From an uncultured Deinococcales bacterium (GTDB lineage: Bacteria; Deinococcota; Deinococci; Deinococcales; JAAFIG01), in contig CAXTTL010000040.1 in the NCBI GenBank assembly GCA_964247135.1, positions 1-26,721 on the forward strand: a stretch of DNA of 26,721 nucleotides, read 5' to 3'. The notes under the pieces are model-generated. The model saw only the letters and a list, made by a program, of their open reading frames with translations. It was not told the DNA's origin and made no database searches. Positions 1-26,721 of this stretch are shown one piece after another. The stretch's first letter is position 1; the number at the start of each line of letters is the position of its first letter. A program made the position numbers and the translations under genes.

Positions 1-1
1 G

Positions 2-79
2 TTGCCAGCCGATGCTCAGAAATCAACCAGCCCTACCAAAAGCCAGGACTTGAGCATCTCGAGCATTGGAAAGCCTTGA
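2..79 (+). CDS. possible 3' end of a gene entering from the left edge (partial)
   Basis: Frame 2 is open from the window edge (LPADAQKSTSPTKSQDLSISSIGKP) to TGA at 77-79 and is followed directly by a hairpin. No homology recognisable. Confidence 0.35.
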   Translation: MPADAQKSTSPTKSQDLSISSIGKP

Positions 80-83
80 CAGG

Positions 84-108
84 GGTGCAAAACCAGGCTT
101 TTTGCACC
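84..108. terminator. stem-loop, possible intrinsic terminator
   Basis: GGTGCAAAA (84-92) pairs with TTTTGCACC (100-108). No clear U-tract beyond the stem. Confidence 0.4.
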
Positions 109-281
109 ATGAGCCTTCAAGAACAACTCGAGAACACAACCGCATGTTGCCAGACAACAGAAATCCCTCGAAAAAACCCGAGTGATTCGCGCTCAGGACA
201 ATCTCGAGCCACCCTGAAGAAACTGATCGAAATTCTGAAATTGAGATTCTCGAGTTTGCCACAAACCATCAGGAGAACCCC

Positions 282-548
282 ATGAGCCGCCGCGAAGCCG
301 TTCAACGCCCGCAAAACGCAACCGAAGAAACCACACTTCCCACTCACTCGAGTCCCACAAACGCACCCGCATTTCAGAATTCAGATTTTAATTTTGGCAA
401 CATCAGGGTGTTCCCCGAAGCACAAACAAGCACTCGAGAAACCATGCCATTTGCTGTGCCACGTTCACTTGATATGGTCGCACACGAAGCGGCACACGTC
501 CAACAATACTTTGAACCTAACCCCATGCAACGCAAACCTCGAGATTGA
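282..548 (+). CDS. small DUF4157 (eCIS core domain)-like protein, internally deleted or miniature
   Basis: AGGAG RBS at 271-275. The product has DFNFGNIRVF and the DUF4157-type zincin tail MVAHEAAHVQQ followed by MQRK, but lacks the middle of the domain. Confidence 0.55.
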   Translation: MSRREAVQRPQNATEETTLPTHSSPTNAPAFQNSDFNFGNIRVFPEAQTSTRETMPFAVPRSLDMVAHEAAHVQQYFEPNPMQRKPRD

Positions 549-635
549 CTTGACGTTACAGCAATGAGAATTCTTCGAGTCCAAATACAATCTGGGATAC
601 ACCTCGAGCCAGAATTGACCCGCTACTCTGATTTG

Positions 636-1532
636 ATGAAAACCATTTTTTTGACCATGTTGCTCGCCGCAATCGGTTTTGCTTTGGCACAAGGCATCGA
701 AGCAGATCGAAAGTATGCCCCAAATGGAACCATCAACATGCCTACCTTGGGCATTTCAATGAAATTTCCATACACGGTTTTTGGCAACCCGAACGACTAC
801 GCCCTGAACGCTGGCGAACTCTCCGTTGGCATTCAACCAGGAGTAAACCCAATCCAAGTCAAATTAGCCATCGAAGCTGCCGCCCGTGGACAATACCAAA
901 AACTAAAGTTAAAAGGAGGCGTCAACATTCGCGGCGATCTTGTGACCGCCAGGTACTACCTTCCCGACGAAGGAACGTACTGGCGCATCGTTTACCGCCG
1001 AGGACCACAAGGGCAGGGCGTCATGTTTTCGATGCAGGGCATTACCAACATTATCGTTCCAAACAACGAAACCAACGTGGGCAACGCCCTGATTCAATTG
1101 GTCAAAACCGTCAAATTCTTTGCGCCGAAAAATGCCAAACTCGAGGCAACCTGGAAAAAGAACCTTGATCCAAAATGGGCGCTGTTCAGCAACGGCACGC
1201 ACGACTTAGACATCTTAAGGTTTTGCAAAGACGGCACACTGTTTTTTCAAGGCGAAACCGAATTCCCCCGCTTGAGCATCATCGAAGATTGGGTCGGGAA
1301 CGATTATCAAAAGCAAATCAAACTCAAATGGAAACTCTACCCCGTCAATGCCAAAATCGCCTTCATGATCCTCGAGTACGCTCAAAACGACATTCGCACG
1401 CTGGAGGTGCAATACAACGATGGCTCGGACGGTTCAACGCCTTCGTTAAAGTTTGGGGGTTCTGTCTTTTTTTTGAAAACAGCCGAAGAACTCAAAGAAC
1501 GGAAATTAAACATCCCAGATTGTGTCAATTGA
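636..1532 (+). CDS. hypothetical secreted protein (N-terminal signal peptide)
   Basis: Long ORF. ATG at 636 gives MKTIFLTMLLAAIGFALA|Q (Sec signal, ALA cleavage site). TACTCT -10 box lies 6 nt upstream, suggesting a leaderless start. Confidence 0.8.
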   Translation: MKTIFLTMLLAAIGFALAQGIEADRKYAPNGTINMPTLGISMKFPYTVFGNPNDYALNAGELSVGIQPGVNPIQVKLAIEAAARGQYQKLKLKGGVNIRGDLVTARYYLPDEGTYWRIVYRRGPQGQGVMFSMQGITNIIVPNNETNVGNALIQLVKTVKFFAPKNAKLEATWKKNLDPKWALFSNGTHDLDILRFCKDGTLFFQGETEFPRLSIIEDWVGNDYQKQIKLKWKLYPVNAKIAFMILEYAQNDIRTLEVQYNDGSDGSTPSLKFGGSVFFLKTAEELKERKLNIPDCVN

Positions 1533-1552
1533 GCACTAAGCCAAACATAGGA

Positions 1553-1581
1553 TTGACACCCTCGAGCATCCCACGTAACAT
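1553..1581 (+). promoter_or_regulatory. sigma70 promoter of the ileS T-box leader
   Basis: TTGACA (1553-1558), 17 bp spacer, TAACAT (1576-1581), directly before T-box stem I. Confidence 0.8.
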
Positions 1582-1587
1582 GACCTT

Positions 1588-1866
1588 AAGGCATTGACGG
1601 GAAGAGTAACTTTTTGCACGTCTCGAGCGAGTTGCGGATGGTGAGAGCGCAACGACACGACAAAAAGCCAAGATCACCCCCGAGCCGACGGAAGAAACAG
1701 TCTGAATTGAGGCTCGAGTAGACCCGTTCGGGTGCGCCCGACACAGCGCACAACAAATCTTGCCAAAGATTTGAATGAGGCTCGAGATTTTCTTGGGCGA
1801 AGTTGGGTGGTAACGCGCATTTTGCGCCCCAACACGAGATGTTTTCGTGTTGGGGTTTTTATTTTT
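1588..1866 (+). ncRNA. T-box riboswitch (Ile, AUC specifier) with transcription terminator
   Basis: Stem I elements AGAGTA, GCGAG and GGTGAGA; specifier ATC at 1673-1675 in AAGATCACC; T-box AAGTTGGGTGGTAACGCG at 1800-1817; terminator CCCCAACACGA/TCGTGTTGGGG plus T-tract at 1827-1866; lies upstream of ileS. Confidence 0.92.
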
Positions 1867-1899
1867 CTCGAGAATTCAAGAAGTTTCGCATTTCTCTCA

Positions 1900-1926
1900 A
1901 GGGGCGAACACAAGGTTCGCCCCTAC
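1900..1926 (-). repeat. REP-like palindrome (GTAG class)
   Basis: Minus strand reads GTAGGGGCGAACCTTGTGTTCGCCCCT: a 5' GTAG followed by a GC-rich hairpin, as in RAYT-associated REPs. Confidence 0.7.
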
Positions 1927-1948
1927 GAAACCCAAAAGGGGCAATGTT

Positions 1949-4900
1949 ATGAAATTTAACGAAATCAGTCCTCAACCCAATTACAAAGAAGTCGAAGCCA
2001 AAGTGCTCGAGTTTTGGAAGTCGCAAAACATCTTCGCGCAATCCGAAGCCAAAGCCGCACCCAAAGGCGAGTTTGTGTTTTATGAAGGTCCACCCACCGC
2101 AAACGGTCAACCCGCCATGCACCACGTTCTTGCTCGGGCGTTCAAGGATTTGTTTCCGCGTTACAAGTCCATGCAAGGCTTTCATGTCACGCGCAAGGGC
2201 GGTTGGGACACGCACGGTTTGCCCGTCGAGATTGCAGTTGAAAAGAAACTCGGGCTTTCAGGTCGCAATCACGGCGCGACTCGAGCGGAAATGGAAGAAT
2301 TCAACAAACTCTGCCGCGAGAGCGTGTTTGCCAACATTCAAGATTGGAACACGTTTACCGAACGCATGGGCTACTGGGTTGACCTCGAGCATCCTTATGT
2401 GACGTATCACAACGATTACATCGAATCGGTTTGGAATCTTATAAAGCGACTTTGGCAAAAGGGGTTGGTCGAACGCGATTATAAAGTTGTGCCTGTTTCG
2501 CCGCGCATTGGCACGACCTTAAGCGCGAACGAAATCGCAGACGGCTACCGAGATGTCAACGATCCAAGCGTCTACGTGCGGTTTCCGATCAAACTCGAGA
2601 CGATGCCAAAAGCCTTCAAAGCCGAACTCGAGGCGCAAAACGTCAATCTGGAAGCCCTCGAGAATCCAGCGTTGGTGGTTTGGACGACGACACCTTGGAC
2701 ATTGCCCAGCAATACCCTGGCAGCCGTCAACCCAGAACTCGAGTACGTGCTGGCAAGTTCCCCACAAGGGCATGTGATCGTCGCGGCGGGTGCGGTCGAA
2801 CGCATGAGCGCACTTTATAAAGACCTGCCACCGCTCGAGGTGGTGGCAACATTTCAGGGCGGGGTTATGGAATACCTCGAGTATCACCAGCCGTTTCCAG
2901 AATCGTTTGAAGAATTGAAGCTCGAGGGGAAAGCGCATTTTGTGGCGTTGGCGGATTTTGTCACCGATGATGACGGTTCGGGCGTGGCGCATGAAGCCCC
3001 CGTTTACGGCGCGGAGGACTTGGCGCTCGGGCGTCAGTATGGTGCGCCGCTGTGCTTTGGCACGGACAAAAACGGCATCATGCAAGTCACCGAGGCTCGA
3101 GGAAAGTTTTTTAAGGACGCCGATAAGGATTTGATCCGCATCATGAAAGAACGCGGCGTGATGTACCACGCTGGGCAACTTTTGCACTCTTACCCGTTCC
3201 ATGACCGCACGGGCGACCCGATTCTGTACTTTGCGCGTCCGAGTTGGTTTGTGCGCACCAACAAGATGCGAGCGAACCTGGCGGCGCAAAATCAGAAAAT
3301 CAATTGGTATCCGCCGCACATCAAGGACGGACGGTTTGGAAATTGGCTCGAGAACAATGTGGACTGGAGCATCAGCCGAGAGCGTTATTGGGGCACACCC
3401 CTCCCCTTCTGGAAATCCGAAGATGGCGATTTGCACGTGGTCGGCAGCGTCAAAGAGCTTTCAGCATTGACAGGTCGTGACCTCTCGAGCCTCGATTTGC
3501 ACCGTCCTTTCGTGGATGACATCACGTTTGAACTCAACGGCAAAACCTTTTCTCGAGTTCCCGAAGTGCTTGATGTCTGGTTTGATTCGGGTTCGATGCC
3601 CTCGGCACAATGGCATTTGCTGCTCGAGGCGGACGGCACGGCGCAAAGCCAAGAAAACCTCGAGACGTTCAAAAAGCATTTTCCAGCCGATTTTATTTGT
3701 GAAGCCATCGATCAGACTCGAGGTTGGTTTTACAGCCTTCACGCGATCAGCACGCTTTTGTATGATTCGCCAGCCTATAAAAACGTGATTTGCTTGGGGC
3801 ATTTGGTGGACGAAAAAGGCAAGAAGATGTCGAAGTCTTTGGGCAATGTGGTCGAACCGCTGCCAGCGTTTGACAAGTACGGCGCGGACAGCGTGCGTTG
3901 GTACATGTTCACCGCCTCCGAGCCTGGCGACACCAAACGTTTTTCCGAGCGCCTGGTGAGTGAAGGTCAGCGCGGATTCGTCAACACGCTTTGGAATGTC
4001 TACAGTTTTTTCGTGTTGTATGCCAACATCGACAACCCAGACCTCAATAACGCGCCAAAACTCGAGCAACGCCCAGAAATTGACCGTTGGCTGATCGCCA
4101 GGCTCGAGCAAACCAAAGAGGGCATGACCAAAGCGCTGGATCATTATGACGCTCGAGGGGCGGGTAAGGCGCTGGACAAATTCGTGATGGAGATGAGCAA
4201 CTGGTACGTTCGGCGCAATCGACGGCGATTCTGGTCGCAGGATGGAACTGTGGACTCGAGCGCTTATGCGACGCTGTATGAGGCGTTGGTGACGTGCGCC
4301 AAACTTGCCGCGCCATTCACACCGTTTTTGGCTGAGAGTCTGTACCAGAATTTGGTACGCAATCAAGACTCGAGTTCTCCAGAGAGTGTGCATTTGTGCG
4401 ACTGGACTGAATTTGATGCCAGCCGTTGTGATCTCAATCTGGTATCTGAAATGAATGCGGTATTGACCGTGGTCGAATTGGGTCGTGCCGCTCGAGCCAA
4501 AGCCAGTTTGGGCAACCGTCAGCCCTTGCCTCGTGCTCTGGTGTATGCCAGAAACCCGAGCGACGTGACAGCACTGACACGTTTGAAAGACGTGGCGCTC
4601 GAGGAACTCAACGTTGAAGACATGGAATTTTTGACGGGCGTGACCTACAAAGTTCGACCTAATCTGCCCGTGCTCGGAAAAACACTGCCGCCAGAAGCCA
4701 AAAAACTCATGCCACAAATCACGGCAGCCCTTGCAAATCCCGAAACCGCCGCTCGAATTGCTGAGAATTTGAACGCTGGCAAAACCGAAAATCTCGAGAT
4801 TGACGGCGTAAGCATCGAACTGACGCTCGAGAAAGTCTTGATTGATGCTGAAGCACCAGCAGGATTCCAGTCTTCACTCTCAGAAGGCTTCCTGGTCGCG

Positions 4901-5179
4901 CTCGATACGAATTTAACCCCAGAACTGAAACTCGAGGGTTTAAAGCGTTTCTTGGTGCGCATGGTCAACCAAGCCCGCAAAGATGCCAAACTCGAGGTCA
5001 GTGACAAAATCGAATTGCGCCTCGAGTTGGAAGGTGAGTTGTTGCAAGCCGCGCAAGAAAAACGTGAATCGCTGGCGCTGGAAACCATGTGCTCAAGCAT
5101 CGAATTTTCTGAACCAAAAACTGGGGATTTTGTGGTCGCGCTCGAAGATGGTGGGCGGTTGGGATTGCGTAAAGTTTAG
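1949..5179 (+). CDS. ileS: isoleucine--tRNA ligase (IleRS type 2)
   Basis: FYEGPPTANG, GWDTHGLPVE, WTTTPWTLPSN, DWSISRERYWGTP and KMSKS motifs; IleRS2-type C-terminus without the zinc finger; upstream Ile T-box. Start moved to ATG 1949 because the longer ORF begins inside the T-box terminator. Confidence 0.97.
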   Translation: MKFNEISPQPNYKEVEAKVLEFWKSQNIFAQSEAKAAPKGEFVFYEGPPTANGQPAMHHVLARAFKDLFPRYKSMQGFHVTRKGGWDTHGLPVEIAVEKKLGLSGRNHGATRAEMEEFNKLCRESVFANIQDWNTFTERMGYWVDLEHPYVTYHNDYIESVWNLIKRLWQKGLVERDYKVVPVSPRIGTTLSANEIADGYRDVNDPSVYVRFPIKLETMPKAFKAELEAQNVNLEALENPALVVWTTTPWTLPSNTLAAVNPELEYVLASSPQGHVIVAAGAVERMSALYKDLPPLEVVATFQGGVMEYLEYHQPFPESFEELKLEGKAHFVALADFVTDDDGSGVAHEAPVYGAEDLALGRQYGAPLCFGTDKNGIMQVTEARGKFFKDADKDLIRIMKERGVMYHAGQLLHSYPFHDRTGDPILYFARPSWFVRTNKMRANLAAQNQKINWYPPHIKDGRFGNWLENNVDWSISRERYWGTPLPFWKSEDGDLHVVGSVKELSALTGRDLSSLDLHRPFVDDITFELNGKTFSRVPEVLDVWFDSGSMPSAQWHLLLEADGTAQSQENLETFKKHFPADFICEAIDQTRGWFYSLHAISTLLYDSPAYKNVICLGHLVDEKGKKMSKSLGNVVEPLPAFDKYGADSVRWYMFTASEPGDTKRFSERLVSEGQRGFVNTLWNVYSFFVLYANIDNPDLNNAPKLEQRPEIDRWLIARLEQTKEGMTKALDHYDARGAGKALDKFVMEMSNWYVRRNRRRFWSQDGTVDSSAYATLYEALVTCAKLAAPFTPFLAESLYQNLVRNQDSSSPESVHLCDWTEFDASRCDLNLVSEMNAVLTVVELGRAARAKASLGNRQPLPRALVYARNPSDVTALTRLKDVALEELNVEDMEFLTGVTYKVRPNLPVLGKTLPPEAKKLMPQITAALANPETAARIAENLNAGKTENLEIDGVSIELTLEKVLIDAEAPAGFQSSLSEGFLVALDTNLTPELKLEGLKRFLVRMVNQARKDAKLEVSDKIELRLELEGELLQAAQEKRESLALETMCSSIEFSEPKTGDFVVALEDGGRLGLRKV

Positions 5180-5208
5180 CTTTCAACCAAGAACCTCGAA
5201 CCTTTGAA

Positions 5209-5256
5209 GTAGGGGCGCTGCTTGCCGCGCCCTTGCCGTTGCGCCCTTGCCATTGC
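5209..5256 (+). repeat. REP-like palindrome (GTAG class) followed by a short tandem duplication
   Basis: GTAGGGGCGCTGCTTGCCGCGCCCTT (5209-5234). GCGCCCTTGCC occurs at 5227-5237 and again at 5241-5251. Confidence 0.65.
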
Positions 5257-5332
5257 TTTCAAGTTTTTGTACCCAATCCAGACTCGAGTCCAAATGAAGT
5301 GCTTTTTCAGCATCCTGTGCTAGCCTTTTTGG

Positions 5333-8300
5333 GTGCAGACCCAAACCGTTTCAACTTTGGTGCAACGGTTAAACCCAGTCGTTTCCAGGCGCTTGGGTGT
5401 GGTTTTAAATGTCTTCGGCGAACCTGGGATCGGGAAATCTTGGACGGTTGCCCAGGTTCTAAAGGGCATTCCGTGTCAGACCCTAAGTTTTGCCGCCAAC
5501 ATCAACGAAACTGATTTGGCGGCGGCTTTACCGCGTCCAAAGAAACTGCCCGTTTGGGCTGAAAAACAACTTTTGCACCTCGAGCGTGGCGAATTCGTCG
5601 ATACGCCGGTGCTGGTGAACACCCTGACGAGCACTTTGGCGGGGCTTGCGCCAATTGTGCTGCACCTCGAGGATGCCCATGAAGCCAGCACTGATCGCCT
5701 CGAGTTGATTCAAAAATTGGCTTTGGCAATCAAACGTTTTAAAGGCATTGGTCTGATCGTCTCGAGCCGCAGTGCACTGTCCGAGCCTTTCGTTTCTTTT
5801 AAAATTGAGGCGCTCAACCGTGCCCAATCTGATGCGTTGCTGACTGGCGAGTTGGGTTTTGAATTGCCGATGGAGGGTTTGGAATATGTTTTTGCCAGGG
5901 CGCAAGGCAATCCTCTGTTTACGCTCGAGTTTTTACGCTATTTGACGCGCCAAGGTTTTCTCTGGTCGGACGGCAAGACCTGGCATTGGCGCACGCCGCC
6001 GACAGGTTTTGTGCCCGTCAGTTTGGAGGCGCTGCTCGAGCGAATCACCAACAGTCTGGTGCTTGAAAGCGACACCAAAACCGCGCTCGAGGCGAGGGCG
6101 ATGTTGAATCTGCCGATTCCGGTGGTGGGTCAAATTTGGCAGCCGGTCAGTGAATTGTCTGAGATGTCTTTCCAAAACGCAAAACTGGCGCTCGAGGCGA
6201 GTGGAATCGTGGTGGGTGGTGTTTTCAGCCACACTTTGATTCAGGAGGTGATCGCGTCGGCAATTCCACCCGAGCGGCGTCAAGTGCTGGCATGGCGCTC
6301 TTGGCGGCAACTCGAGCAAACCGATCCAATTTTGGCAACGCGTTTTATTCAGGATTCGGCGCGAAGTCATTCGGAGGTTTTAGACCTGCTCGAGCGGGCG
6401 ATGGCGGCGTGTACCCAACCCGAGCAAGCCGCCAAACTGTTGGCGTTAAAGGTGCAATGGACGCCACTTGCGAACCGTTTTGAGGTGGCACTCGAGGCTT
6501 CCAAGGCTTTGCTGGAAGTCGATTTGAAAACCGCCATCCAACTTGGAGAACTGGCTTTTGCACTCTCGCCCAACCATGAAGCGTTGTACTGGCTGGTCGA
6601 AATTCGTCTTCTCGAGCGGCGCTTTGATGATGCGAGAAAATTGCTGGGGACCCTGCCGAAAGCTGAAAAGAACTCGGTACGGCACTGGGAGTTTGGCATT
6701 CGGGTCTGCAAAGAGTCTTCAGAATTTCGTCTCGCACTCGAGCGTTGGCACTCGCATCCCGAATTCCAGGCGCTGGCGGAGCCAAAAACGATTCAGAGCT
6801 TGGCGTGGTGCATCATGGAAAGCGCCGTTCCAACTGAGATCACCTACGCCACAGAATTGATTTCCAAAACCTTGGCTCGAGACTTGAGCTTGCAAAACCG
6901 TTACTGGCTGCTCGATGCCAGGGGAAATCTGGAACTGCGTTTGAATCAGTACGCCGCCGCCAAAAATGATTTTTTAGAAGCACTCGAGTCCGCCAGCCTG
7001 GCGGGTTCGCATTTGTGGCGGGCAAAATTGTGCAACGACTTGGCGCACGTGCATTACATCCAAGACCAAAATGGGGAGGCTGTGACGTATCTTGAAATGG
7101 CGTACCAGATCATGCTCGAGCATGGGCAGGCGTTTGATCTGGCGCACATGCAGGCACGGTTGGGCGTGGTTTGTCTGGAGCGTGCCCAGTTTGAAAAAGC
7201 CGAATCCATGATGCAGCAAAGCCGTGAAATTTTGCAACACTCTGACAGCCTCGAACTCTGCGAGGTCAATTTGCACCTGGCAAATTTGTACCTGGCTTGG
7301 AACACCGCCCACAGCGCGGTGCTGGCGCGTTGGTATGCCAGCAGCGGTTTAAAGGTGGCGCGCAGGTTGGGCGTGCCTTTTACGTTGTGCTTGGCGTTGT
7401 TTCGCGCGGTCCAATGCGAACTGAAATTTGGTGATCTGGGTGCCGCCAAGGACTTGCTGCCGGAGTTTTCATTCAATCTTAAAGGTTTAAACATGTCGGG
7501 TTTGGAGGCGCGGCTGGCGTGGGCGAAGGGCATGGTTTTGGAAGCCAAACACGATATTCCTGGGGCACTCGAGCAATACCAAAGCGCCGCGACGCTGTTC
7601 GAGAAACTGAAGGACCTGAGTTTGATTCATCAGGTGCAGCTCGAGATTGACCGTTTAAACCAAGACACAGCCCGAGCCAAAACACATGGGGTTTGGTTTG
7701 AAGCCCACGGTTTGCTGCGTTTGGCGCAACTTGTACAGCGTTATTTTCCAGAAACCCTCGAAATGGCTGCTCCCAAAGTCGCCACAACCAAAGACGGTTC
7801 GTTACGACTTCAGGTACTCGGAACGGTTTCACTCGAGCAGCAAGGCAAAACCATCAACTACCGTGGTCGCAAACGCCTCGAGTTTTTGGGATATTTGCTC
7901 GAAACCCGCATCTCTGGGCGCGTTGAAGCCCCGACGCTCGAGATCATTGACGCGCTGTATCCAGATTTGCTCGAGCCTGAAGCCAAATCGGCGCTCAAGC
8001 AACTGGTGTATTTGCTGCGCAGCAAACTGGGCGCGGAAGTGATTCAAAGCACCGCTCAGGGTTATGCTTTGGGTGCCATCGGCAGCGACGCCGAAGAATT
8101 CCTGGCGACCGGCGACCCAAGCTTGTGGCACGGCATTTATTTGGAGGGATTGTCTGAGGGCTGGCTACCTGGGGTGCGCGACGCCTTGGTGCAGGCGATT
8201 CGTCAAAAAATTGAGAGCCTGGCAAAAACCGATGCCAAGCAAGCCGCACGGCTCGGGCAGATTTTGCTCGAGATGGAACCGTATGACCGTGACACGCTCG

Positions 8301-8452
8301 AGCTGACCTTACGCGCCATTGGTGAAAATGAAACCCTCAGCGGCACGCTATACCGATCTGCCAGAATTCGTTTTGAGCAAATCGGTGAATCCCTGCCCAA
8401 CTCGAGCGAGGCATTCTTAAAAATGCGTAACGAATCGTTTTTGGTCGATTGA
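5333..8452 (+). CDS. STAND-type AAA ATPase with TPR repeats and C-terminal winged-helix/BTAD (SARP-like) module; putative transcriptional regulator
   Basis: Walker A GEPGIGKS, Walker B VLHLEDAH, STAND GxP motif AQGNPLF, long helical TPR-like middle. C-terminal LRLQVLG...LYPD...KSALKQLVYLLRSKLG...GYAL...LEMEPYD resembles SARP wHTH+BTAD. GTG start lies 6 nt after extended -10 TGcTAGCCT. Confidence 0.85.
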   Translation: MQTQTVSTLVQRLNPVVSRRLGVVLNVFGEPGIGKSWTVAQVLKGIPCQTLSFAANINETDLAAALPRPKKLPVWAEKQLLHLERGEFVDTPVLVNTLTSTLAGLAPIVLHLEDAHEASTDRLELIQKLALAIKRFKGIGLIVSSRSALSEPFVSFKIEALNRAQSDALLTGELGFELPMEGLEYVFARAQGNPLFTLEFLRYLTRQGFLWSDGKTWHWRTPPTGFVPVSLEALLERITNSLVLESDTKTALEARAMLNLPIPVVGQIWQPVSELSEMSFQNAKLALEASGIVVGGVFSHTLIQEVIASAIPPERRQVLAWRSWRQLEQTDPILATRFIQDSARSHSEVLDLLERAMAACTQPEQAAKLLALKVQWTPLANRFEVALEASKALLEVDLKTAIQLGELAFALSPNHEALYWLVEIRLLERRFDDARKLLGTLPKAEKNSVRHWEFGIRVCKESSEFRLALERWHSHPEFQALAEPKTIQSLAWCIMESAVPTEITYATELISKTLARDLSLQNRYWLLDARGNLELRLNQYAAAKNDFLEALESASLAGSHLWRAKLCNDLAHVHYIQDQNGEAVTYLEMAYQIMLEHGQAFDLAHMQARLGVVCLERAQFEKAESMMQQSREILQHSDSLELCEVNLHLANLYLAWNTAHSAVLARWYASSGLKVARRLGVPFTLCLALFRAVQCELKFGDLGAAKDLLPEFSFNLKGLNMSGLEARLAWAKGMVLEAKHDIPGALEQYQSAATLFEKLKDLSLIHQVQLEIDRLNQDTARAKTHGVWFEAHGLLRLAQLVQRYFPETLEMAAPKVATTKDGSLRLQVLGTVSLEQQGKTINYRGRKRLEFLGYLLETRISGRVEAPTLEIIDALYPDLLEPEAKSALKQLVYLLRSKLGAEVIQSTAQGYALGAIGSDAEEFLATGDPSLWHGIYLEGLSEGWLPGVRDALVQAIRQKIESLAKTDAKQAARLGQILLEMEPYDRDTLELTLRAIGENETLSGTLYRSARIRFEQIGESLPNSSEAFLKMRNESFLVD

Positions 8453-17368: not shown

Positions 17369-18169
17369 ATGACCACGACCGCTTCAGACCGTTTGAGTCT
17401 CGCCAAAACCATGCTCAGCAAAGTCCCAGAGGTCACGGTTTACTTTTGGATCATCAAGGTGCTGGCGACCACGATTGGCGAAACCGCCGCCGATTTTTTG
17501 AACACCAACTTAAACCTTGGCTTGACTGGCACAACGCTCGTCATGGGCGTCTTGTTGATCAGCGTGCTGTTTTTTCAATTTCGCTGCCGGCAGTACATTC
17601 CAAGTATTTACTGGCTGGCGGTGGTGTTGATCAGCGTGGTCGGCACGCTGATTACCGATAACTTGGTGGACAATTTTGGGGTCGGTTTGCAAACCACCAC
17701 CATTTTGTTTGCCGTGGCGCTGAGTGCCAGTTTTATTGCCTGGTATCTGTCCGAGAAAACCCTGTCGATTCACAGTATTTTCACCACCAAACGCGAGGCG
17801 TTTTACTGGCTGGCAGTGCTCTTTACCTTTGCGCTCGGCACGGCGGCGGGCGATTTGGTTGCCGAGGGTCTGAACTTGGGCTATTGGAAATCGGCGTTGA
17901 TGTTTGCGGGCATGATTGGCGCGGTTGGGTTGGCGCATGTGTTCCTGAAATTGCCTGGCATTCCGACCTTCTGGATTGCCTATATTTTGACCCGACCACT
18001 TGGGGCTTCAATCGGTGATTTCTTGTCACAAGACAAAACCGATGGTGGACTTCAGTTGGGAACGTTTGTTACCAGCGGTGTTTTCTTGGTCGCCATTTTG
18101 GCGGTGGTGATCTTTTTAACCCTCACCAAACGAGACTTGGAAGTGGTTCCCGCCCAGTTCGAGAAATGA
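17369..18169 (+). CDS. COG4705 / DUF347-repeat membrane protein
   Basis: SKVPEVTVYFWIIKVLATTIGETAAD, REAFYWLAVLFTFALGTAAGD and FWIAYILTRPLGASIGD motifs; multiple TM helices. Confidence 0.88.
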   Translation: MTTTASDRLSLAKTMLSKVPEVTVYFWIIKVLATTIGETAADFLNTNLNLGLTGTTLVMGVLLISVLFFQFRCRQYIPSIYWLAVVLISVVGTLITDNLVDNFGVGLQTTTILFAVALSASFIAWYLSEKTLSIHSIFTTKREAFYWLAVLFTFALGTAAGDLVAEGLNLGYWKSALMFAGMIGAVGLAHVFLKLPGIPTFWIAYILTRPLGASIGDFLSQDKTDGGLQLGTFVTSGVFLVAILAVVIFLTLTKRDLEVVPAQFEK

Positions 18170-18280: not shown

Positions 18281-18312
18281 AACTCTTCCATCAAATTACG
18301 ATGGAAGGGTTA
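18281..18312. terminator. stem-loop between convergent genes
   Basis: AACTCTTCCATC pairs with GATGGAAGGGTT. Confidence 0.45.
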
Positions 18313-18380
18313 GAAATACCCATTTGCTCGAGTTGCGCTGAATGTCAGTGAATTTGCGAGAAAGCACTTTACATTCAAGA

Positions 18381-19667: not shown

Positions 19668-20456
19668 TCAGGATTTTGATTTAAACACCACACCATTCTT
19701 AAGGTTTGGCGCCCGACCAAGCTGAATTTGCTCCAAATAATCTGTGCGAATCTCGAGCAGCAAATCTTCGGCAAATTGGCGCGATGAAGGCAATTTCAAC
19801 GCCAAATTCTGTTCTCGAGTCTCGAGCCATTCGTTAAAACCGCGTTTGGCGGTGTGCTGGTTTTTGTCAAACAAGGTTTTGATTAAAGCTTCCAAACCCG
19901 AGCTTGATTTGAATGCCTGCACGCTACCGACCCACAATTCTGTTAACTGATCTGGAAAATCGACTCGCTCGAGACGCTGTTTGGTCAATTCCACGAAGGC
20001 TGGTTCAAATTCTGGAAATTCGCTGGCGACATCGCCCAGTCCGATCACCATCGACCAGTAATGCCAGTACAAACTGTCCTCCAAGCTGAGCAGTGCGGCA
20101 GGGTCACGCTCGAGTTCGAGAATTCTGGCGAGGGCAGCATCGAAGCCAACTGGTCCAAACGCACCGATGGCTTGCGGCACAATCTCGGGAATCCAGGCGT
20201 GACCGATTCGTTCCGCCTCGAGTTCGGCGGCAATCACCTCATGCACGGCTTGGCTCGCTTTGACGAGCACCAAATACGCGATTGATGAAGTCTCGAGCCG
20301 CAAGAATTCGTCTTCAGGGTTTTTCAACCACGGCAGCGCAATGATTTCTCGAGCCAGGGCGATCATTTCAGGATCAGGCTCGAGGGTTTTGATGGTTGGG
20401 GCGTCAAAAATTCCTGTGCCCTCTTTGAGTTGCAAAAGCCATTGTTCTCGGGTCAT
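19668..20456 (-). CDS. hypothetical alpha-helical protein
   Basis: 262 aa ORF with host-like codon use (in-frame CTCGAG Leu-Glu); TATTCT -10 box 6 nt before the ATG. No confident family. Confidence 0.75.
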   Translation of the reverse strand: MTREQWLLQLKEGTGIFDAPTIKTLEPDPEMIALAREIIALPWLKNPEDEFLRLETSSIAYLVLVKASQAVHEVIAAELEAERIGHAWIPEIVPQAIGAFGPVGFDAALARILELERDPAALLSLEDSLYWHYWSMVIGLGDVASEFPEFEPAFVELTKQRLERVDFPDQLTELWVGSVQAFKSSSGLEALIKTLFDKNQHTAKRGFNEWLETREQNLALKLPSSRQFAEDLLLEIRTDYLEQIQLGRAPNLKNGVVFKSKS

Positions 20457-20473
20457 CCGTTTAGAATAACGTG
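20457..20473. promoter_or_regulatory. bidirectional overlapping -10 elements for two leaderless genes
   Basis: Plus strand TAGAAT (20462-20467), N6, GTG at 20474. Minus strand TATTCT (20468-20463), N6, ATG at 20456. Confidence 0.75.
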
Positions 20474-23014
20474 GTGTCGCTTAAAGGTACAGGTTCTGGT
20501 CCACTTCCGCCGCTGCTCGAGCAGTACGTTAAACTTCGTGACGAACACGCCGAGTATCTGTTGTTTTTTCAGGTCGGCGAGTTTTTTGAGACCTTTGGCG
20601 AAGACGCCGAACGGTTCGCTCGAGCGCTGAATTTGACCTTGACGCACAAGACCAGCAAGGATTTTTCGACGCCGATGGCGGGCATTCCGATGCGTGCCGC
20701 CGATGCGCACATCGAGCGTTTGTTGAGGTTGGGCTACCGTGTGGCGGTGGCGGAACAGGTGCAAGACCCCGCGCTCGCGCAAGGTTTGGTTGACCGTGAG
20801 GTGACGCAGCTCATCACGCCAGGCACGGTGATTGACGACGCGATTTTGCACGGCGAAGAAAACTATTTGGCGGGTGTCGCCAGCGGTGACGGGTACGGGC
20901 TGGCGCTGCTTGACGTGAGCACCGGCGAGTTCAGGTGTTGTCACGTCTCGAGTCGCGGTGCGTTGTACGACGAACTGGCGCGGTATCGCCCGAGCGAGGT
21001 CTTGCTCGCGCCTGAACTTCAGGACAACACGGTGTTCTCGAACGAGTTTAATGCCAGGTTTAGAGCCATGCGCTCGAGTGCCAGTTTTGCGCCTCAGGAT
21101 GCCCAGGAAGTGCTCGAGCGGCAGTTTGGCAGTCTCCCCAAAGGGCTTGAACTCGAGGCGGTTTTACGGGCTTGTGGCGCGGTGCTGGCATACGCGTCTC
21201 GGGTCGCCGAGAACCAAACACTGCCCGCTGTGCGGCGCTTGGTGCGTTACGACCCTGGAGCGCAAATGCGCCTGGACGAAACCGCGATTCGGGCGCTCGA
21301 GATTTTTGAACCCATCAACCCGACCGCCAACGAGAATGCGACGTTGTTTGGTGCGCTCAACCAAACCCGCACCGCCCCAGGTCGTCGGCGCTTGAAAGAC
21401 TGGCTGCGCTCTCCCCTGCTCGACGTGAATCTGATTAACGACAGGCTCGAGGCGGTCGCCGATTTGTACCGAGACTCGAGCACCAGACATTCCATCCGCT
21501 CGAGTTTGTACCGCGCCCATGATTTGGAACGACTTGCGGCGCGGGTCGCCGCCGAACGTGCCAACGCCAGGGATTTGAACGCGCTTTGTCGCACCCTCGA
21601 GCTTGTGCCAGAGCTTCGCGCCAGCATTGCCAACCTCGAGTCAAGGCTTTTGCGTGACATTGCCAGTCGCTTAGACCCGATTGAAGAAGCCGCCAGCCTC
21701 GTGCGTGCCTCACTCGAGGAAAGCCCACCACTTCGACTGACAGACGGCGGTTTGATTCGAGACGGTTTTGACAGCGAACTCGACCAGTACCGCAAGCATT
21801 CGATGGCGGGACGCACTTGGATCGCTGCGCTCGAGGAATCCGAACGCGCCAGAACGGGCATTCACAGTTTGAAAGTTGGGTTCAACAATGTTTTCGGCTA
21901 TTTTCTTGAGGTTACCAACCAGCACCGTGACCGTGTTCCAGACGATTACAAACCCGTCGCAACCCTCAAAGACCGCCAGCGTTTTACCCGCCCCGACTTG
22001 CGCGAACGCGAGCGCGAGATTCTGCACAACGAAGACCGTGCCAGCAAACGTGAGTACAGCGTGTTCCTCGAGCTTCGGGTGAGTTTGGCAAAATTTACCG
22101 AGCGCCTGCAATTTTTGGCTGGCGCTCTGGCAGAACTCGACGTGCTCGCCAACCTCGCCGAAGTCGCCAGTGAGCGTAGTTATGTGCGACCCGAGATTCT
22201 CGAGAATGGCACGGTTCAGATCGAACAGGCGCGGCATCCCGTGGTTGAGGTGGCAACCAGAGAAACCAGCAACCCGTTCATTCCAAATGACATCAACCTG
22301 TCCGACTCGAGCCGCATCACATTAATCACTGGTCCAAACATGAGTGGCAAAAGCACCTACCTGCGTCAAATTGCCCTGATCGCCCTGATGACCCAAATCG
22401 GGTCGTTCGTGCCCGCCAAAACCGCCAAAACCAGGGTTTTTGACCGTATTTACACCCGCATCGGCGCCAGTGACGACTTGGCTGGTGGCGCGAGCACTTT
22501 CATGGTCGAAATGCGCGAACTCGCCAGCATTCTGCACGGCGCGACCCCCTCGAGCCTGGTGATTCTGGACGAGGTTGGACGCGGCACGAGCACTTTCGAC
22601 GGTCTGGCAATTGCCTGGGCGGCTTGCGAATTCTTGCATCAAACCAGGGCGTTCACGCTTTACGCCACGCATTATTTTGAACTGACACAACTCGAGCAGC
22701 GTCTTTCGGGCGTGGTGAATTTGCACGTCGCCGCCCAAGAAGAAGCCGCACACGGTTTGCGGTTTTACCATCAGGTCATGCCCGGACCCGCCAGCAAAAG
22801 TTACGGCGTGCAGGTCGCCAAACTTGCAGGCTTGCCACCCGAAGCCGTGGCTCGAGCCGAGGCATTGTTGAACAGCCTCGAATCCAACTCGAGTGACCGT
22901 GTGAATGTGGTCGCCAGGGAATTGCTGGCGTTGGATGTCTCGAGGTTGACGCCGATGCAGGCGCTCTCAAAGCTCGAGGAATTGCAGAAAGAGTTGCGAC
23001 CAAAGGCAGGATAA
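20474..23014 (+). CDS. mutS: DNA mismatch repair protein MutS (MutS1)
   Basis: PLLEQY, GEFFETF (Phe-X-Glu), PMAGIP, Walker A GPNMSGKST, STFMVEM, DEVGRGTST, ATHYFEL and SYGVQVAKLAG motifs. Start is GTG 20474 (alternative 20471). Confidence 0.97.
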   Translation: MSLKGTGSGPLPPLLEQYVKLRDEHAEYLLFFQVGEFFETFGEDAERFARALNLTLTHKTSKDFSTPMAGIPMRAADAHIERLLRLGYRVAVAEQVQDPALAQGLVDREVTQLITPGTVIDDAILHGEENYLAGVASGDGYGLALLDVSTGEFRCCHVSSRGALYDELARYRPSEVLLAPELQDNTVFSNEFNARFRAMRSSASFAPQDAQEVLERQFGSLPKGLELEAVLRACGAVLAYASRVAENQTLPAVRRLVRYDPGAQMRLDETAIRALEIFEPINPTANENATLFGALNQTRTAPGRRRLKDWLRSPLLDVNLINDRLEAVADLYRDSSTRHSIRSSLYRAHDLERLAARVAAERANARDLNALCRTLELVPELRASIANLESRLLRDIASRLDPIEEAASLVRASLEESPPLRLTDGGLIRDGFDSELDQYRKHSMAGRTWIAALEESERARTGIHSLKVGFNNVFGYFLEVTNQHRDRVPDDYKPVATLKDRQRFTRPDLREREREILHNEDRASKREYSVFLELRVSLAKFTERLQFLAGALAELDVLANLAEVASERSYVRPEILENGTVQIEQARHPVVEVATRETSNPFIPNDINLSDSSRITLITGPNMSGKSTYLRQIALIALMTQIGSFVPAKTAKTRVFDRIYTRIGASDDLAGGASTFMVEMRELASILHGATPSSLVILDEVGRGTSTFDGLAIAWAACEFLHQTRAFTLYATHYFELTQLEQRLSGVVNLHVAAQEEAAHGLRFYHQVMPGPASKSYGVQVAKLAGLPPEAVARAEALLNSLESNSSDRVNVVARELLALDVSRLTPMQALSKLEELQKELRPKAG

Positions 23015-23070
23015 ACTGGCTCTCAAATCAGCAATCGATTTTGACTAAAAACTCGAGAATTTATTTCGTT

Positions 23071-24060
23071 TCACACAGAACTTTCCGTAACTTGAGAATT
23101 GGCATTTTTTACCACATACGGGACTTCCCAAGCATGAACTGAGCCTGCTGTACTTGTGGCAATCACTTTGGAATCATCTGGATAGAATTGCACGTGTAGA
23201 ACTGGCCACGACATAGCGAATAAAGTTCCAAGGTCGTCACCTGTTTGAGCATTCCAAAACCGTATTTGACGACCTGAGCCGACGGCAGCAATGACTGAAC
23301 CATCATTTGAGAAAGCAGCAAATCGCAAATACAAATGATGGCTTTTAATTTGAAGCAGTTCGATACCAGTTTTAGCATCCCAAACCCTAACAATACTGTC
23401 CTGTCCTGCTGTTAAAATTTTTAAACCGTCCAACGAAAATACAGCACTGGGAAGCTGACTTTTGGATTTGTGTCCAACGAGTCTCAAGATTTCAGTACCA
23501 GTTTCAAGATTCCAAACTCGAGCTGTACCATCTGTTACTGTAGACACGATCATTGAACCATCCGAGCTAACATCGATATCACAAACGACACAAAATCCAT
23601 TGTCCGGTTCTTCGTGTTCCAAGCTTTTGATTCCTTCACCAGTTTCAAAATCCCATATAGAAACCTGGCTGCCTTGACACGTGATAATTTTTGTATCGTC
23701 CTCTAAAAACCTCACTGCATTAATAGACCATTGATGTACGTGAAGTTCCTTAAGTAAAGCTATACTTTTTACATCCCAAACTCGAATAAATCCATCTTGA
23801 TGACCAGTGACAATTTTGGACTCATCAAACGTGATGCAGGCACAACCAAATATTCCATAAAACGCTTTATCTTGTAAATGGATGTCGCTTTTTGCAATAA
23901 GAAACAATTCTCGTGCATTGGCTGCATCCCAAACTCGCACTGTTTCGTCACAACCCACTGTCAATATCCTCTTGCCGTCTTTTAAAAAAACTGCGGAAGC
24001 CACATCGCCAAAATGACCTTTGAAAGTTATTGCTGGTGTACTGATCCGTTCTGGTTTCAT
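23071..24060 (-). CDS. WD40 repeat beta-propeller protein
   Basis: About 7 repeats ending VRVWD, IRVWD, VSIWD, ARVWN, VRVWD, IRFWN and VHAWE, some with GH starts; GGAG RBS; AT-rich compared with neighbours. Confidence 0.9.
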   Translation of the reverse strand: MKPERISTPAITFKGHFGDVASAVFLKDGKRILTVGCDETVRVWDAANARELFLIAKSDIHLQDKAFYGIFGCACITFDESKIVTGHQDGFIRVWDVKSIALLKELHVHQWSINAVRFLEDDTKIITCQGSQVSIWDFETGEGIKSLEHEEPDNGFCVVCDIDVSSDGSMIVSTVTDGTARVWNLETGTEILRLVGHKSKSQLPSAVFSLDGLKILTAGQDSIVRVWDAKTGIELLQIKSHHLYLRFAAFSNDGSVIAAVGSGRQIRFWNAQTGDDLGTLFAMSWPVLHVQFYPDDSKVIATSTAGSVHAWEVPYVVKNANSQVTESSV

Positions 24061-24367
24061 GGTTCAATATCTCCGAGACAACCATAACAAAAAGTAGGAT
24101 CAAAAGTTTCTTCAATCATTCTTTTCGACAAAATTTTCAACTTTTTTGCGATGAACTATACAAAAACAGTCTATTTTTGGATACCATACTATACAAAAAT
24201 TGCAATTCTGGCTCACGAATCTTTCACAAACGCTTTCATCCGTCTCGAGTATTCACGTCCCACCTCAAGATGGTCTTTTCCCCAGAGTCTCGAGGCTGCA
24301 TGAAGTCGAGTCAAACATGAATCCTGACCTCAAGAAACGGCATCAATTTCCCATAACAATTACAAAA

Positions 24368-26721
24368 TCACGTTATCGGCATCAGTTCTACAACTTGAGA
24401 CCCATCCCCCGAAAAACCCTGCATCTGGCTCGAGTTCTGCATCATGTTCACGAAAGCCAACGTGATCTCAGGGTCAAAATGCGTGCCGTTACACTCGAGC
24501 AGGTAATTGATGGTCTTTTCTTGCGTCCAGGCGGTGCGGTAGGGTCTGTCGGACATCAGGGCGTCGTACACGTCGATGATCGCAAAAATTCTGGCGGCGA
24601 GGGGAATCTCTGGTCCCTTTAAGCCGCGCGGATAACCGCTGCCATCGAATTTTTCGTGGTGCGCGTAAGGAATCTCGAGGGCAGGACGCAAAAAAGGAAT
24701 TTTGGAGAGCCATTCGTTTGCCAGGACCGGATGTTGTTTCATCAGCATCCATTCTTCGGCGTCCAGTTTGCCTGGTTTTAAGAGGATACGGTCTGGCACG
24801 CCCAGTTTTCCAATGTCGTGAAGCAGCGCACCGCGTCTGATTTGGAGAATGTCCGAGTGATCTAGATTCATTTCTTTTGCCAGGGCAACGGTCAACGCGG
24901 TGACCCGCTGCGAGTGTCCTTCGGTTTCGTGGTCGCGCAAATCAATGGCGAGCGAAAGGGCTTGAATGGTGTCGTCGTAAGCACTTTGCAGGTCTTGGTT
25001 GGCGGTTTGCAGGTCGGTAAAAAGCCTCGAGTTTTCGATGGCGATGGCGGCTTGAACCGCCAGGGATTGCAAGAAGGTATTCCAGTCCTCGCCAAAGTCT
25101 GTGATGGTGCGCGTGTACAATTCGAGTACGCCTTGCAGTCCAGCCCGCGACCAGAGCGGGATCGACCAGCTCGAGCGGAAGCCTTCGGTGGCAAAGTTTG
25201 GTTGGTTATCGCCGCTCGGTTTGGCAAAATCGCTGGTCTGCACAATGTCTCGAGCCAAGGCAGCCCGCCCGGGTCGTCCTTCGCCCAGGTGGAAAGGCAG
25301 GTTTTGAATTTTTTCATAAAAACCGTTGCTGGCAACGAATTCCAGGTTGTTGTTGGCTGGTTGATGCAAGATCACGGCGGCGGCATCGACGCCAAGTTTG
25401 CTGACGCATTCTTGCAAAAAGAATTTCAAGACCGAGTCGAGGTCCAGACTGCTGGTGATGGCAAGGTCAATGTTGTGAAGTAAAGACAGTTGGCGCAGTT
25501 GTTCCTGTACTTGTTGACGCAGTGCCAGCCGCCGCAGTGTGTTGGCTGCAAGTTCGACGGCACGTTCGAGCATGTTGATCTCGGCATAATTGATAACTCG
25601 AAGGTGCGGTACGGCGACGTTTAACACGCCCAGCACATCGCTGCCTGTTTGAATCGGAATCACCGCTCCAGACCAGTGTTTGGGCACAAAATCTCGAGAT
25701 TCATGGTAGATGTTCGGGCTTTGGTGTAAGTTCTCGATTCGCTCCGAAATTCTGGTGTGCACCACGCTGGCGGTGAGGCTGTCTGTTGGGAGTTTGTTGG
25801 GTTTTGGGAGGTTGACAAACCAACCTTGGGAACTCGAGATTCCAACTTTTTTGCTGACCGAATCAAACATCACGATGCTGCCAGCGTCGGTTTCCAAGCT
25901 GAGCAGCACTTCGCTTAAAAGGTTGTCGATCAGTTGTTGAACGTCGTCGGTTTCGCGCAGTCGCCAGGCGATCTGTTGAATCAGCTCGAGTTCGCGGCGG
26001 TATTCGACCGCTTCGGTCACGTCTTGTTTGATGGCGACGAAATGGCTGATGTGACCTGTTTCGTCCTTGACGGGCGTGATCGTCATTTCTTCGATGTATT
26101 CGCTGTTGTTTTTGCGGCGGTTGGTCAGTTGTCCCTGCCAGACTTCGGCGTTCATGATGGTCGTGCGCAGCGCATCGTAAAACCCTGGGGTTTGACGACC
26201 CGAATCCAGAAACCAGAGTTCCTGGTTCTGACATTCCTGCAAGCTGTAACCTGTTAAATTCGTAAAGGCAGGGTTAGCCCATTGGATCAAGCCATCTTTG
26301 TTGGTGATCACAATAGCGTTGGCGGCAGATTCCAGCACCACGGCTTGAAGCTTGAGTTGTGCTTCGGTTTTGCGGCGTTCGGTGACGTCGTGAATGATCG
26401 AGTACAACAATTCGCGTCCGTCCACCGTGATCGGTCCACTGTAAATTTCGACATCGCGGACCTCGTTGTTTTTCAGGCGTTGCTGACCAACAAAGAATTC
26501 TCGTTTGCCTGACATCGCATCCTCGAGTTCTTGTTGTAAACCTGGGACTGGCATGGAATTGATGTCTGAAACTTTGAGGTTGGTAAATTCTTCGAGGCTG
26601 TAACCGTAAAATTCGCAGGCGGCAGGGTTCGCGTCCACGATCTCCATTGTTTTTGGGTCTATAAAAAGCATCAATGCATGGTTGGAGTAAAACATTGATC
26701 GGTAACGCCATTCGCTCTCAT
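24368..26721 (-). CDS. PAS-PAS-GAF-GAF-HD-GYP cyclic-di-nucleotide phosphodiesterase (5' partial)
   Basis: PAS motifs ANPAACEFYGYS...HDVTER and ANPAFTNLTGYS...QDVTE, two GAF-like segments, HD-GYP motifs ETEGHSQRV, LLHDIGK, HHEKFDGSGYP. The frame stays open to the window edge (ESEWRYRSMF), so the true start lies outside. Confidence 0.93.
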   Translation of the reverse strand, partial: ESEWRYRSMFYSNHALMLFIDPKTMEIVDANPAACEFYGYSLEEFTNLKVSDINSMPVPGLQQELEDAMSGKREFFVGQQRLKNNEVRDVEIYSGPITVDGRELLYSIIHDVTERRKTEAQLKLQAVVLESAANAIVITNKDGLIQWANPAFTNLTGYSLQECQNQELWFLDSGRQTPGFYDALRTTIMNAEVWQGQLTNRRKNNSEYIEEMTITPVKDETGHISHFVAIKQDVTEAVEYRRELELIQQIAWRLRETDDVQQLIDNLLSEVLLSLETDAGSIVMFDSVSKKVGISSSQGWFVNLPKPNKLPTDSLTASVVHTRISERIENLHQSPNIYHESRDFVPKHWSGAVIPIQTGSDVLGVLNVAVPHLRVINYAEINMLERAVELAANTLRRLALRQQVQEQLRQLSLLHNIDLAITSSLDLDSVLKFFLQECVSKLGVDAAAVILHQPANNNLEFVASNGFYEKIQNLPFHLGEGRPGRAALARDIVQTSDFAKPSGDNQPNFATEGFRSSWSIPLWSRAGLQGVLELYTRTITDFGEDWNTFLQSLAVQAAIAIENSRLFTDLQTANQDLQSAYDDTIQALSLAIDLRDHETEGHSQRVTALTVALAKEMNLDHSDILQIRRGALLHDIGKLGVPDRILLKPGKLDAEEWMLMKQHPVLANEWLSKIPFLRPALEIPYAHHEKFDGSGYPRGLKGPEIPLAARIFAIIDVYDALMSDRPYRTAWTQEKTINYLLECNGTHFDPEITLAFVNMMQNSSQMQGFSGDGSQVVELMPIT

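Follow-up and report, generated by a model that had tools for sequence, protein, structure and literature searches.

The function of highly iterated palindromes (HIPs) has been open since 1993, and these words have been studied solely in cyanobacteria (PMC13756078). The cyanobacterial HIP1 (GCGATCGC) shows conservation within coding as well as non-coding DNA, is linked to methyltransferases, and raises transformation in a manner that depends on methylation (PMC13756078). Comparable behavior of a different word, the palindromic hexamer CTCGAG, is described here for a 26,721-bp stretch of DNA from an uncultured Deinococcales bacterium (contig CAXTTL010000040.1; the whole stretch is hereafter called the window). 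The signal was carried by the window and by two related loci, L001 and L002.

Other systems are also known to shape the frequency of short words. Very-short-patch (VSP) repair by Vsr and Dcm shapes the frequency of CCWGG in Escherichia coli, a precedent for a methyltransferase-linked repair enzyme that makes its own site more frequent. Under Elhai's ratchet model (PMC4390886), the inner core should be enriched, or one-off variants should be strongly biased toward the outer positions. DNA uptake sequences have doubled the tripeptides encoded by them, and genes acquired recently lack these sequences (PMC2817400). Methylation of CTCGAG itself has been reported in various prokaryotes and communities (PMC8112702; bioRxiv 10.64898/2026.06.24.734251). 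Within the literature library searched, neither a hyper-abundance of CTCGAG nor any iterated palindrome of Deinococcota was found to have been reported.

Abundance of CTCGAG in the window

The window carries chromosomal housekeeping genes, namely: ileS, an AAA/TPR gene, pepQ, a PP2C phosphatase gene, glgA, rpoD, mutS, and a PAS/GAF/HD-GYP gene. The CTCGAG field and three of the open reading frames (ORFs) within it were:

1..26721, no strand: CTCGAG field, 176 sites (counts against shuffles and against a first-order Markov model with the sites masked)
1847..5179, + strand: ileS ORF, 30 sites (9.0 per kb; TIGR00392, 951 bits)
5333..8452, + strand: AAA/TPR regulator-like ORF, 25 sites (8.0 per kb)
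20471..23014, + strand: mutS, 23 sites (9.0 per kb; TIGR01070)

In total, the 176 copies in 26,721 bp amounted to 6.6 per kb, with a mean gap of 151 bp. Dinucleotide-preserving shuffles (n = 100) contained a mean of 5.72 copies (standard deviation 2.24, maximum 11), and none of the 100 reached 176. The masked first-order Markov model predicted 3.4 copies, giving an approximately 52-fold enrichment. A preliminary description of this DNA had claimed extreme over-representation from manual counts of about 15 copies in the first 1.9 kb and about 29 in ileS. The enrichment proved stronger than that claim (176 vs. 5.72) and the counts were accurate: 15 sites lie at positions 58–1867, and 30 lie in the ileS ORF read from its first GTG, or 29 if the site at 1867, just past the terminator of the T-box leader listed below, precedes the true start.

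The second most frequent palindromic hexamer was TTTAAA, with 19 copies. The remaining 63 palindromic hexamers summed to 180 copies against 404 expected (observed/expected ratio, O/E, 0.45), and 54 of the 63 fell under expectation. Palindromes were otherwise avoided, and CTCGAG alone was about as numerous as the 63 others combined.

Across the window, L001, L002, and a further related locus, L003, palindromic hexamers except CTCGAG had O/E ratios of 0.38–0.55. Twenty-four of the 64 palindromic hexamers had zero copies in the window (e.g., GTCGAC, GGATCC, and CTGCAG). This avoidance suggests long exposure to many restriction systems.

A maximal-order Markov control gave a ratio of only 1.30 for CTCGAG (352 vs. 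271, both strands). The control was discarded as degenerate because 352 of the 404 CTCGA/TCGAG pentamer copies sit inside the hexamer itself.

Reading frames, codon choice, and non-coding DNA

The coding set consisted of 18 ORFs taken as genes (24,133 bp), leaving 2,588 bp outside ORFs. All three frames were used by the 150 coding sites: 105 as CTC-GAG (Leu-Glu), 16 as xCT-CGA-Gxx, and 29 as xxC-TCG-AGx. Synonymous-codon shuffles (n = 500), which preserve every protein and the codon usage of each gene, gave frame means of 18.6, 1.4, and 2.6, respectively, and a total mean of 22.6; the maximum was 34, as compared with the 150 observed. Since the shuffles keep the codon usage of each gene, any inflation of CTC and GAG counts is already inside the control. 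The two frames other than Leu-Glu were each approximately 11-fold above the shuffles.

Synonymous opportunities for the word were occupied in 105 of 154 Leu-Glu dipeptides (68%; 20 of 24 in ileS), 29 of 63 x-Ser-Ser/Arg contexts (46%), and 16 of 52 Pro/Thr/Ala/Ser-Arg-x contexts (31%). Outside the Leu-Glu context, CTC accounted for 105 of 759 Leu codons and GAG for 144 of 427 Glu codons. Site density was higher outside ORFs (26 in 2,588 bp, 10 per kb) than in coding DNA (150 in 24,133 bp, 6.2 per kb). The frame counts and the codon-preserving shuffles uphold the earlier view that CTCGAG occupies all frames and intergenic DNA and that codon bias is insufficient to explain it. The contrary outcomes named at that time, restriction to the Leu-Glu frame and loss of the signal under codon or k-mer control, did not occur in the window.

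Two site-bearing stretches outside the main ORFs were:

1..563, no strand: stretch outside the main ORFs, 7 sites (58, 127, 203, 249, 347, 433, and 538; approximately 12 per kb)
1585..1834, + strand: T-box leader (RF00230), a non-coding RNA upstream of ileS, with sites at 1622, 1713, and 1781

The T-box leader matched RF00230 with 89.7 bits (E-value 2.2e-20). This falls just short of the gathering score of 93, which is why a default Rfam scan of the window, run at the gathering threshold, gave no match. The leader is followed at approximately 1835–1862 by a terminator-like stem and a T-run. The site-dense left end also holds an ORF at 282–548 (+ strand, 88 aa) that is possibly coding, and its HEAAH resembles a zinc-metallopeptidase signature.

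The six-base unit

The pressure on CTCGAG acts at the DNA level on exactly six bases and not on the adjacent bases. Flanking positions in the window, L001, and L002 carried at most 0.092 bit each, and a longer motif around CTCGAG was rejected, as the flank logos of all three were without information. The inner core TCGA was rejected as the true target: its counts outside CTCGAG were near expectation (125 vs. 100 expected; further loci, 96 vs. 81 and 22 vs. 21).

One-off variants of CTCGAG, pooled over nine classes, were enriched 1.44-fold (194 vs. 134 expected). Transition-type variants were highest, at 1.5- to 2.3-fold (CCCGAG 2.3-fold, TTCGAG 2.2-fold, CTTGAG 1.5-fold), and outer-position variants were enriched only approximately 1.9-fold (88 vs. 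46.6). The graded over-representation of mismatched forms that characterizes uptake sequences was not seen, with 1.44-fold for one-offs against approximately 50-fold for the exact word. The depletion of deamination products that characterizes VSP repair was also not seen: CTTGAG/CTCAAG pooled stood at 26 vs. 17.8 expected and TTCGAG/CTCGAA pooled at 45 vs. 20.6. Repeats of the repetitive extragenic palindrome or miniature inverted-repeat transposable element type form an extended, mostly intergenic block; here the flanks were uninformative and 150 of the 176 sites lay within ORFs.

Conservation and gain of sites between relatives

Relatives were obtained from a MutS scan. The nearest records were metagenome-assembled genome loci: L001 (contig JANXTZ010000033.1; 97% amino acid identity) and L002 (67%, a partial match) of Deinococcales, and L003 (58%) of Deinococcaceae. 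The early guess of Deinococcota was thereby borne out. L001 aligned to the window at approximately 85% nucleotide identity across roughly 12.3 kb; DNA-level alignment of L002 extended over 535 bp only.

The comparison of orthologous sites proposed in the preliminary description was made against L001. The alignment contained 68 CTCGAG sites common to both, 13 found only in the window, and 16 found only in L001; thus 68 of 81 window sites were retained. Within coding DNA, 65 of 75 sites were identical in L001, as compared with 5,311 of 11,451 other hexamers (46%); within non-coding DNA, the counts were 3 of 6 sites and 226 of 727 other hexamers. Third codon positions were identical in 142 of 150 cases within sites (94.7%) vs. 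2,672 of 3,710 elsewhere (72.0%). At a distance of one from a site, third-position identity was 0.72, which is the background value. Because identity was at background from the first base outside, the constraint is site-exact and not regional, and recombination or repair tracts around the sites were rejected on the same evidence. Of the 29 non-shared sites, 28 aligned gap-free, indicating that sites were gained or lost by substitution and not by insertion.

In a codon-by-codon alignment of MutS, all 23 window sites were also CTCGAG in L001. The stretch of MutS covered by L002 includes 8 window sites, and 4 of these were also present in L002.

Spacing of sites

CTCGAG sites excluded one another over approximately 30 bp at the DNA level, and beyond that distance their placement was random. 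Seven gaps in the window were shorter than 30 bp against 30.6 expected, and none of 5,000 randomizations was that low. Positions 1–9279 contained no such gap against 16.4 expected (0 of 5,000 randomizations). In the part of L001 that is not syntenic with the window there were 7 such gaps against 14.5 expected (P = 0.008). A hard-core exponential with a core of 30 bp described the gaps of at least 30 bp well (chi-square P = 0.49; 296 gaps pooled, 17 of them under 30 bp), and site counts per counting interval were under-dispersed (variance/mean 0.4–0.9). Gaps between copies of ten other frequent hexamers were Poisson-like. Neither helical phasing nor a preferred spacing of CTCGAG was detected (mean phase vector 0.05 at 10.5 bp).

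The exclusion was also visible in codon choice. Consecutive Leu-Glu pairs fewer than 10 codons apart (n = 15) had exactly one CTCGAG in 13 cases and two in 2 cases. Pairs farther apart (n = 121) had two CTCGAG in 66 cases, one in 41, and none in 14. A site lay within 30 nt of 15 of the 49 Leu-Glu dipeptides not coded CTCGAG vs. 8 of the 105 coded so (odds ratio 5.3, Fisher P = 4e-4).

Imprint on proteins

Leu-Glu was the most deviant dipeptide of the window proteome, with 154 occurrences vs. 66.5 expected (2.3-fold); none of 2,000 residue shuffles gave more than 91. The reverse dipeptide, Glu-Leu, was at expectation (66 vs. 66.5). In the MutS of L003, which is not enriched for the word, residues compatible with a site were present at 6 of the 23 window site positions and incompatible residues at 17. 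Opposite the Leu-Glu sites of the window, L003 carried, for example, L-K, S-A, L-D, L-V, T-E, and V-E, and opposite the Ser-Ser sites it carried varied residue pairs.

Lineage distribution and gene age

CTCGAG density among the related loci was as follows:

L001: 7.1 per kb, enriched
L002: 4.4 per kb, enriched, guanine-cytosine (GC) content 47%
L003: 0.13 per kb (3 copies vs. 8 expected), avoided, as palindromes in general are
Other 77 loci: at most 2.5 per kb, the highest values in DNA of 72% GC

For MutS relatives at 64–97% identity (P0001–P0033), the medians were 1.59 for Leu-Glu O/E and 11 for the number of Ser-Ser plus Ser-Arg dipeptides. Among the matches listed, the 87 more distant Deinococcota MutS sequences had medians of 1.02 and 4, respectively. 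By this dipeptide measure, a weak proxy, the three least similar clade members looked unenriched. These protein-level values suggest that the trait may run through most of an uncultured clade.

Two genes of the window were poor in sites:

17369..18169, + strand: DUF347 membrane-protein gene, 0 sites vs. 5.3 expected (Poisson P = 0.005)
23071..24060, - strand: WD40 beta-propeller gene, 1 site vs. 6.5 expected (P = 0.011)

The longest stretch without a site (847 bp, 17352 to 18199) contains the DUF347 gene, which was not at the syntenic place in L001. The surrounding stretch 17205–18548 did not align to L001, which has only approximately 205 bp there, so that it represents either an insertion in the window or a deletion in L001. 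The WD40 gene had a GC content of 41% and a third-position GC content of 31%, as compared with approximately 52% and 60% in its neighbors; none of its three Leu-Glu dipeptides was coded CTCGAG, and it was not found at this place in L001. Given its deviant composition and the lack of an L001 counterpart at this position, the WD40 gene was probably acquired recently by horizontal transfer. Newly acquired genes carry few or no CTCGAG, and time is needed for sites to accrue.

Additional genes of the window and of L001 were noted. A 262-aa helical protein, conserved between the two and encoded divergently from mutS (window 19668–20456, - strand; L001:9210–10034, - strand), was encoded by the gene densest in sites (11.4 per kb) and contained 11 Leu-Glu dipeptides. 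It had no match in Pfam, NCBIfam, or PADLOC, and the Atlas gave unnamed clusters only. The ORF at 564–1532 (+ strand, 322 aa) has an N-terminal hydrophobic segment and belongs to no NCBIfam, Pfam, or PADLOC family. At L001:18122–18810 (+ strand) a PIN-domain gene follows a 90-aa ORF, an arrangement that resembles a toxin-antitoxin pair; this region is AT-richer (GC 41–43%), with one CTCGAG in each ORF.

Origin and possible role of the sites

On balance, and by no wide measure, it is probable that CTCGAG is a genome-wide watermark of the HIP kind in an uncultured Deinococcales clade, serving as a self or kin mark linked to a methyltransferase. Sites arise by point substitution wherever the sequence tolerates them. 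Synonymous opportunities are filled first, followed by amino acid replacement at variable protein positions, and non-coding DNA is occupied most freely; once present, sites are kept between species. The six-base palindromic specificity points to a dimeric, type-II-like DNA enzyme. The likeliest agent would be a CTCGAG methyltransferase, either solitary or linked to restriction, whose gene lies in another part of the genome. The mark may distinguish resident or kin DNA from foreign DNA, either in uptake and recombination or in repair. Weak selection, or a molecular drive coupled to this use, would let sites accumulate, in line with proposals made for HIP1 and uptake sequences. The 30-bp exclusion may reflect saturation, with one bound or marked site serving its surroundings.

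The preliminary description had likened CTCGAG to HIP1 and had suggested methylation-coupled repair as one cause. The HIP-like character stood, as the sites are found in all frames and in non-coding DNA, are conserved, and are borne by substitution. A Vsr-like T:G repair of deaminated cytosine is disfavored because the C-to-T product, CTTGAG/CTCAAG, was not depleted (26 vs. 17.8). The suggestion that the machinery lies outside the window is consistent with NCBIfam, Pfam, and PADLOC searches of the window ORFs, several of which have no family. A Methyltransf_25 protein at L001:12537–13181 was considered as a candidate and rejected, since its domain is of the small-molecule methyltransferase type.

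Several observations weigh against a methyltransferase-linked mark. Searches with NCBIfam, Pfam, and PADLOC of the window ORFs and of the flanks of L001 and L002 revealed no DNA methyltransferase, no restriction enzyme, and no Vsr-like protein, although with several ORFs family-less this is absence of evidence; nor was a nuclease or DNA-binding candidate for CTCGAG found in the window, L001, or L002 loci. The link to methylation is purely one that we infer. Selection and biased-repair drive are inseparable from two genomes, as both predict site-exact conservation. The depletion of short gaps in L002 was not significant (3 vs. 5.7, P = 0.15), and the four MutS sites common to L002 may have been inherited from a common ancestor or may stem from the same Leu-Glu positions becoming saturated independently. 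The predictions of the ratchet model were weakly matched, with TCGA near expectation and outer one-offs at only approximately 1.9-fold. Known uptake sequences do not resemble a 6-mer present at 6.6 per kb, and an exclusion of 30 bp is far below the length of the DNA fragments taken up in transformation.

A more specific version is rather doubtful. It holds that uncultured Deinococcales possess an independent HIP system, in which a methylated six-base palindrome, as dense as a word of four bases (one per 150 bp), would mark self or kin DNA for a protein whose footprint is approximately 30 bp, for example when incoming DNA is recombined or when repair has to choose a strand. Approximately 1% of protein positions would have been rewritten in the process.

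A functionless molecular drive is an unlikely source of the sites. In such a drive, a repair or gene-conversion bias, for example a mismatch endonuclease together with a CTCGAG methyltransferase, would convert near-cognates and restore mutants. Tens of thousands of sites per genome would be kept more easily in this way than by selection on each site, and Elhai's ratchet model for HIP1 provides a precedent (PMC4390886). Conservation was site-exact with flanks at background identity, sites that change amino acids exist (MutS), and transition one-offs were mildly enriched in the manner of a mutational halo (TTCGAG 2.2-fold, CCCGAG 2.3-fold, CTTGAG 1.5-fold). However, the classical Vsr signature, depletion of CTTGAG/CTCAAG, was absent (26 vs. 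17.8), a blind process offers no obvious cause for the 30-bp exclusion zone, and NCBIfam, Pfam, and PADLOC gave no match to an enzyme of this sort in the window, L001, or L002.

A DNA uptake or kin-recognition sequence, by which CTCGAG-bearing DNA would be preferentially taken up and recombined, as with the uptake signal sequences (USS) and DNA uptake sequences (DUS) and as proposed for HIP1, is less likely again. Thermus and Deinococcus are naturally transformable, which favors this explanation, and a clade-specific motif enriched approximately 50-fold would discriminate kin DNA. The effect on Leu-Glu in the proteome and the site-poor new genes mirror uptake sequences (PMC2817400), and HIP1 has been proposed as an uptake watermark (PMC13756078). 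Known uptake sequences, however, are 9–12 nt long, asymmetric, and present at approximately 1 per kb, with gradually over-represented mismatched forms (PMC1939737), whereas one-off forms of CTCGAG were enriched just 1.44-fold. The flanks in the window and L001 alignment also lacked the effect of a recombination tract, and the 30-bp exclusion is below any plausible length of an uptake fragment.

It is very improbable that the sites bind an abundant nucleoid-associated or chromosome-organizing protein independently of methylation. The hard core of approximately 30 bp, outside which placement is random, matches a protein footprint in size, and counts per interval were under-dispersed (variance/mean 0.4–0.9); such a role has been proposed for HIP1 (PMC5861425). 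Against this, the window, L001, and L002 yielded no candidate protein, no helical phasing was detected (phase vector 0.05 at 10.5 bp), and nucleoid proteins rarely require an exact 6-mer.

Finally, a by-product of codon or dicodon preference (selection on Leu-Glu at the level of translation) or of a dispersed CTCGAG-containing repeat can be practically dismissed: the Leu-Glu frame does hold 105 of the 150 coding sites (70%), but the other two frames were each approximately 11-fold over the synonymous shuffles, density peaked outside ORFs (10 per kb), CTC and GAG were minority codons outside the Leu-Glu context, flanks were uninformative with 28 of 29 differing sites gap-free, and the sites lie within conserved housekeeping genes.

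Comparison with known systems

If CTCGAG is indeed a HIP-kind mark, it would be a second, independent case outside the cyanobacteria and a natural replicate at several times the density, adding a clean exclusion zone and a visible protein imprint. The thirty-year-old question of HIP function could then be tested by comparing two unrelated phyla; genes that co-occur with CTCGAG density across Deinococcota could be compared with those that co-occur with HIP1. The word is also a sharp compositional marker, of use in binning the clade, spotting recent transfers, and predicting the methylome and the restriction barrier.

Restriction-modification systems of the XhoI/PaeR7I type recognize the same palindrome, CTCGAG. 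A host genome normally avoids restriction sites, and the other 63 palindromic hexamers were likewise avoided here (O/E 0.45), whereas CTCGAG was hyper-abundant. The Vsr/Dcm effect on word frequency is small, with depleted T-variants; the effect on CTCGAG was approximately 50-fold, and CTTGAG/CTCAAG were not depleted.

The USS of Pasteurellaceae and the DUS of Neisseriaceae resemble CTCGAG in accumulating by point mutation, in approximately doubling the encoded peptides, in favoring poorly conserved residues, and in being absent from new genes (PMC2817400). They differ in being longer, non-palindromic, and present at approximately 1 per kb, with graded mismatched forms (PMC1939737).

HIP1 and the alternate cyanobacterial HIPs are, like CTCGAG, short GC-rich palindromes that are tens-fold over-represented in coding and non-coding DNA (PMC13756078, PMC5861425, PMC4390886). 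Like CTCGAG, HIP1 is conserved between genomes above comparable words, is spread by substitution and not insertion, and is lineage-specific. CTCGAG thus has the features of the HIP class: it is the top palindrome of its length, is found in all frames and in non-coding DNA, is conserved, and is spread by substitution. It is not HIP1 proper, as the motif is CTCGAG, CGATCG occurred 0 times in the window, and the organism belongs to the Deinococcales. Cognate methyltransferases are known for HIP1; none was found for CTCGAG in the window, L001, or L002. HIP1 proper is marked by a quasi-periodic distribution at 10–90 kb; the window spans 26.7 kb. HIP1 saturates near one per 1,000 nt (Elhai, PMC4390886), as compared with approximately 6.6 per kb for CTCGAG, and the CTCGAG system further differs in that its inner core TCGA and its one-offs were barely enriched. 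The 30-bp exclusion and the 2.3-fold Leu-Glu excess are both absent from the HIP1 passages compared. HIP1 is an octamer of cyanobacteria and CTCGAG a hexamer of other sequence in Deinococcota; CTCGAG is new with respect to the known HIPs in its word, its length, its phylum, its density, and its 30-bp exclusion zone.

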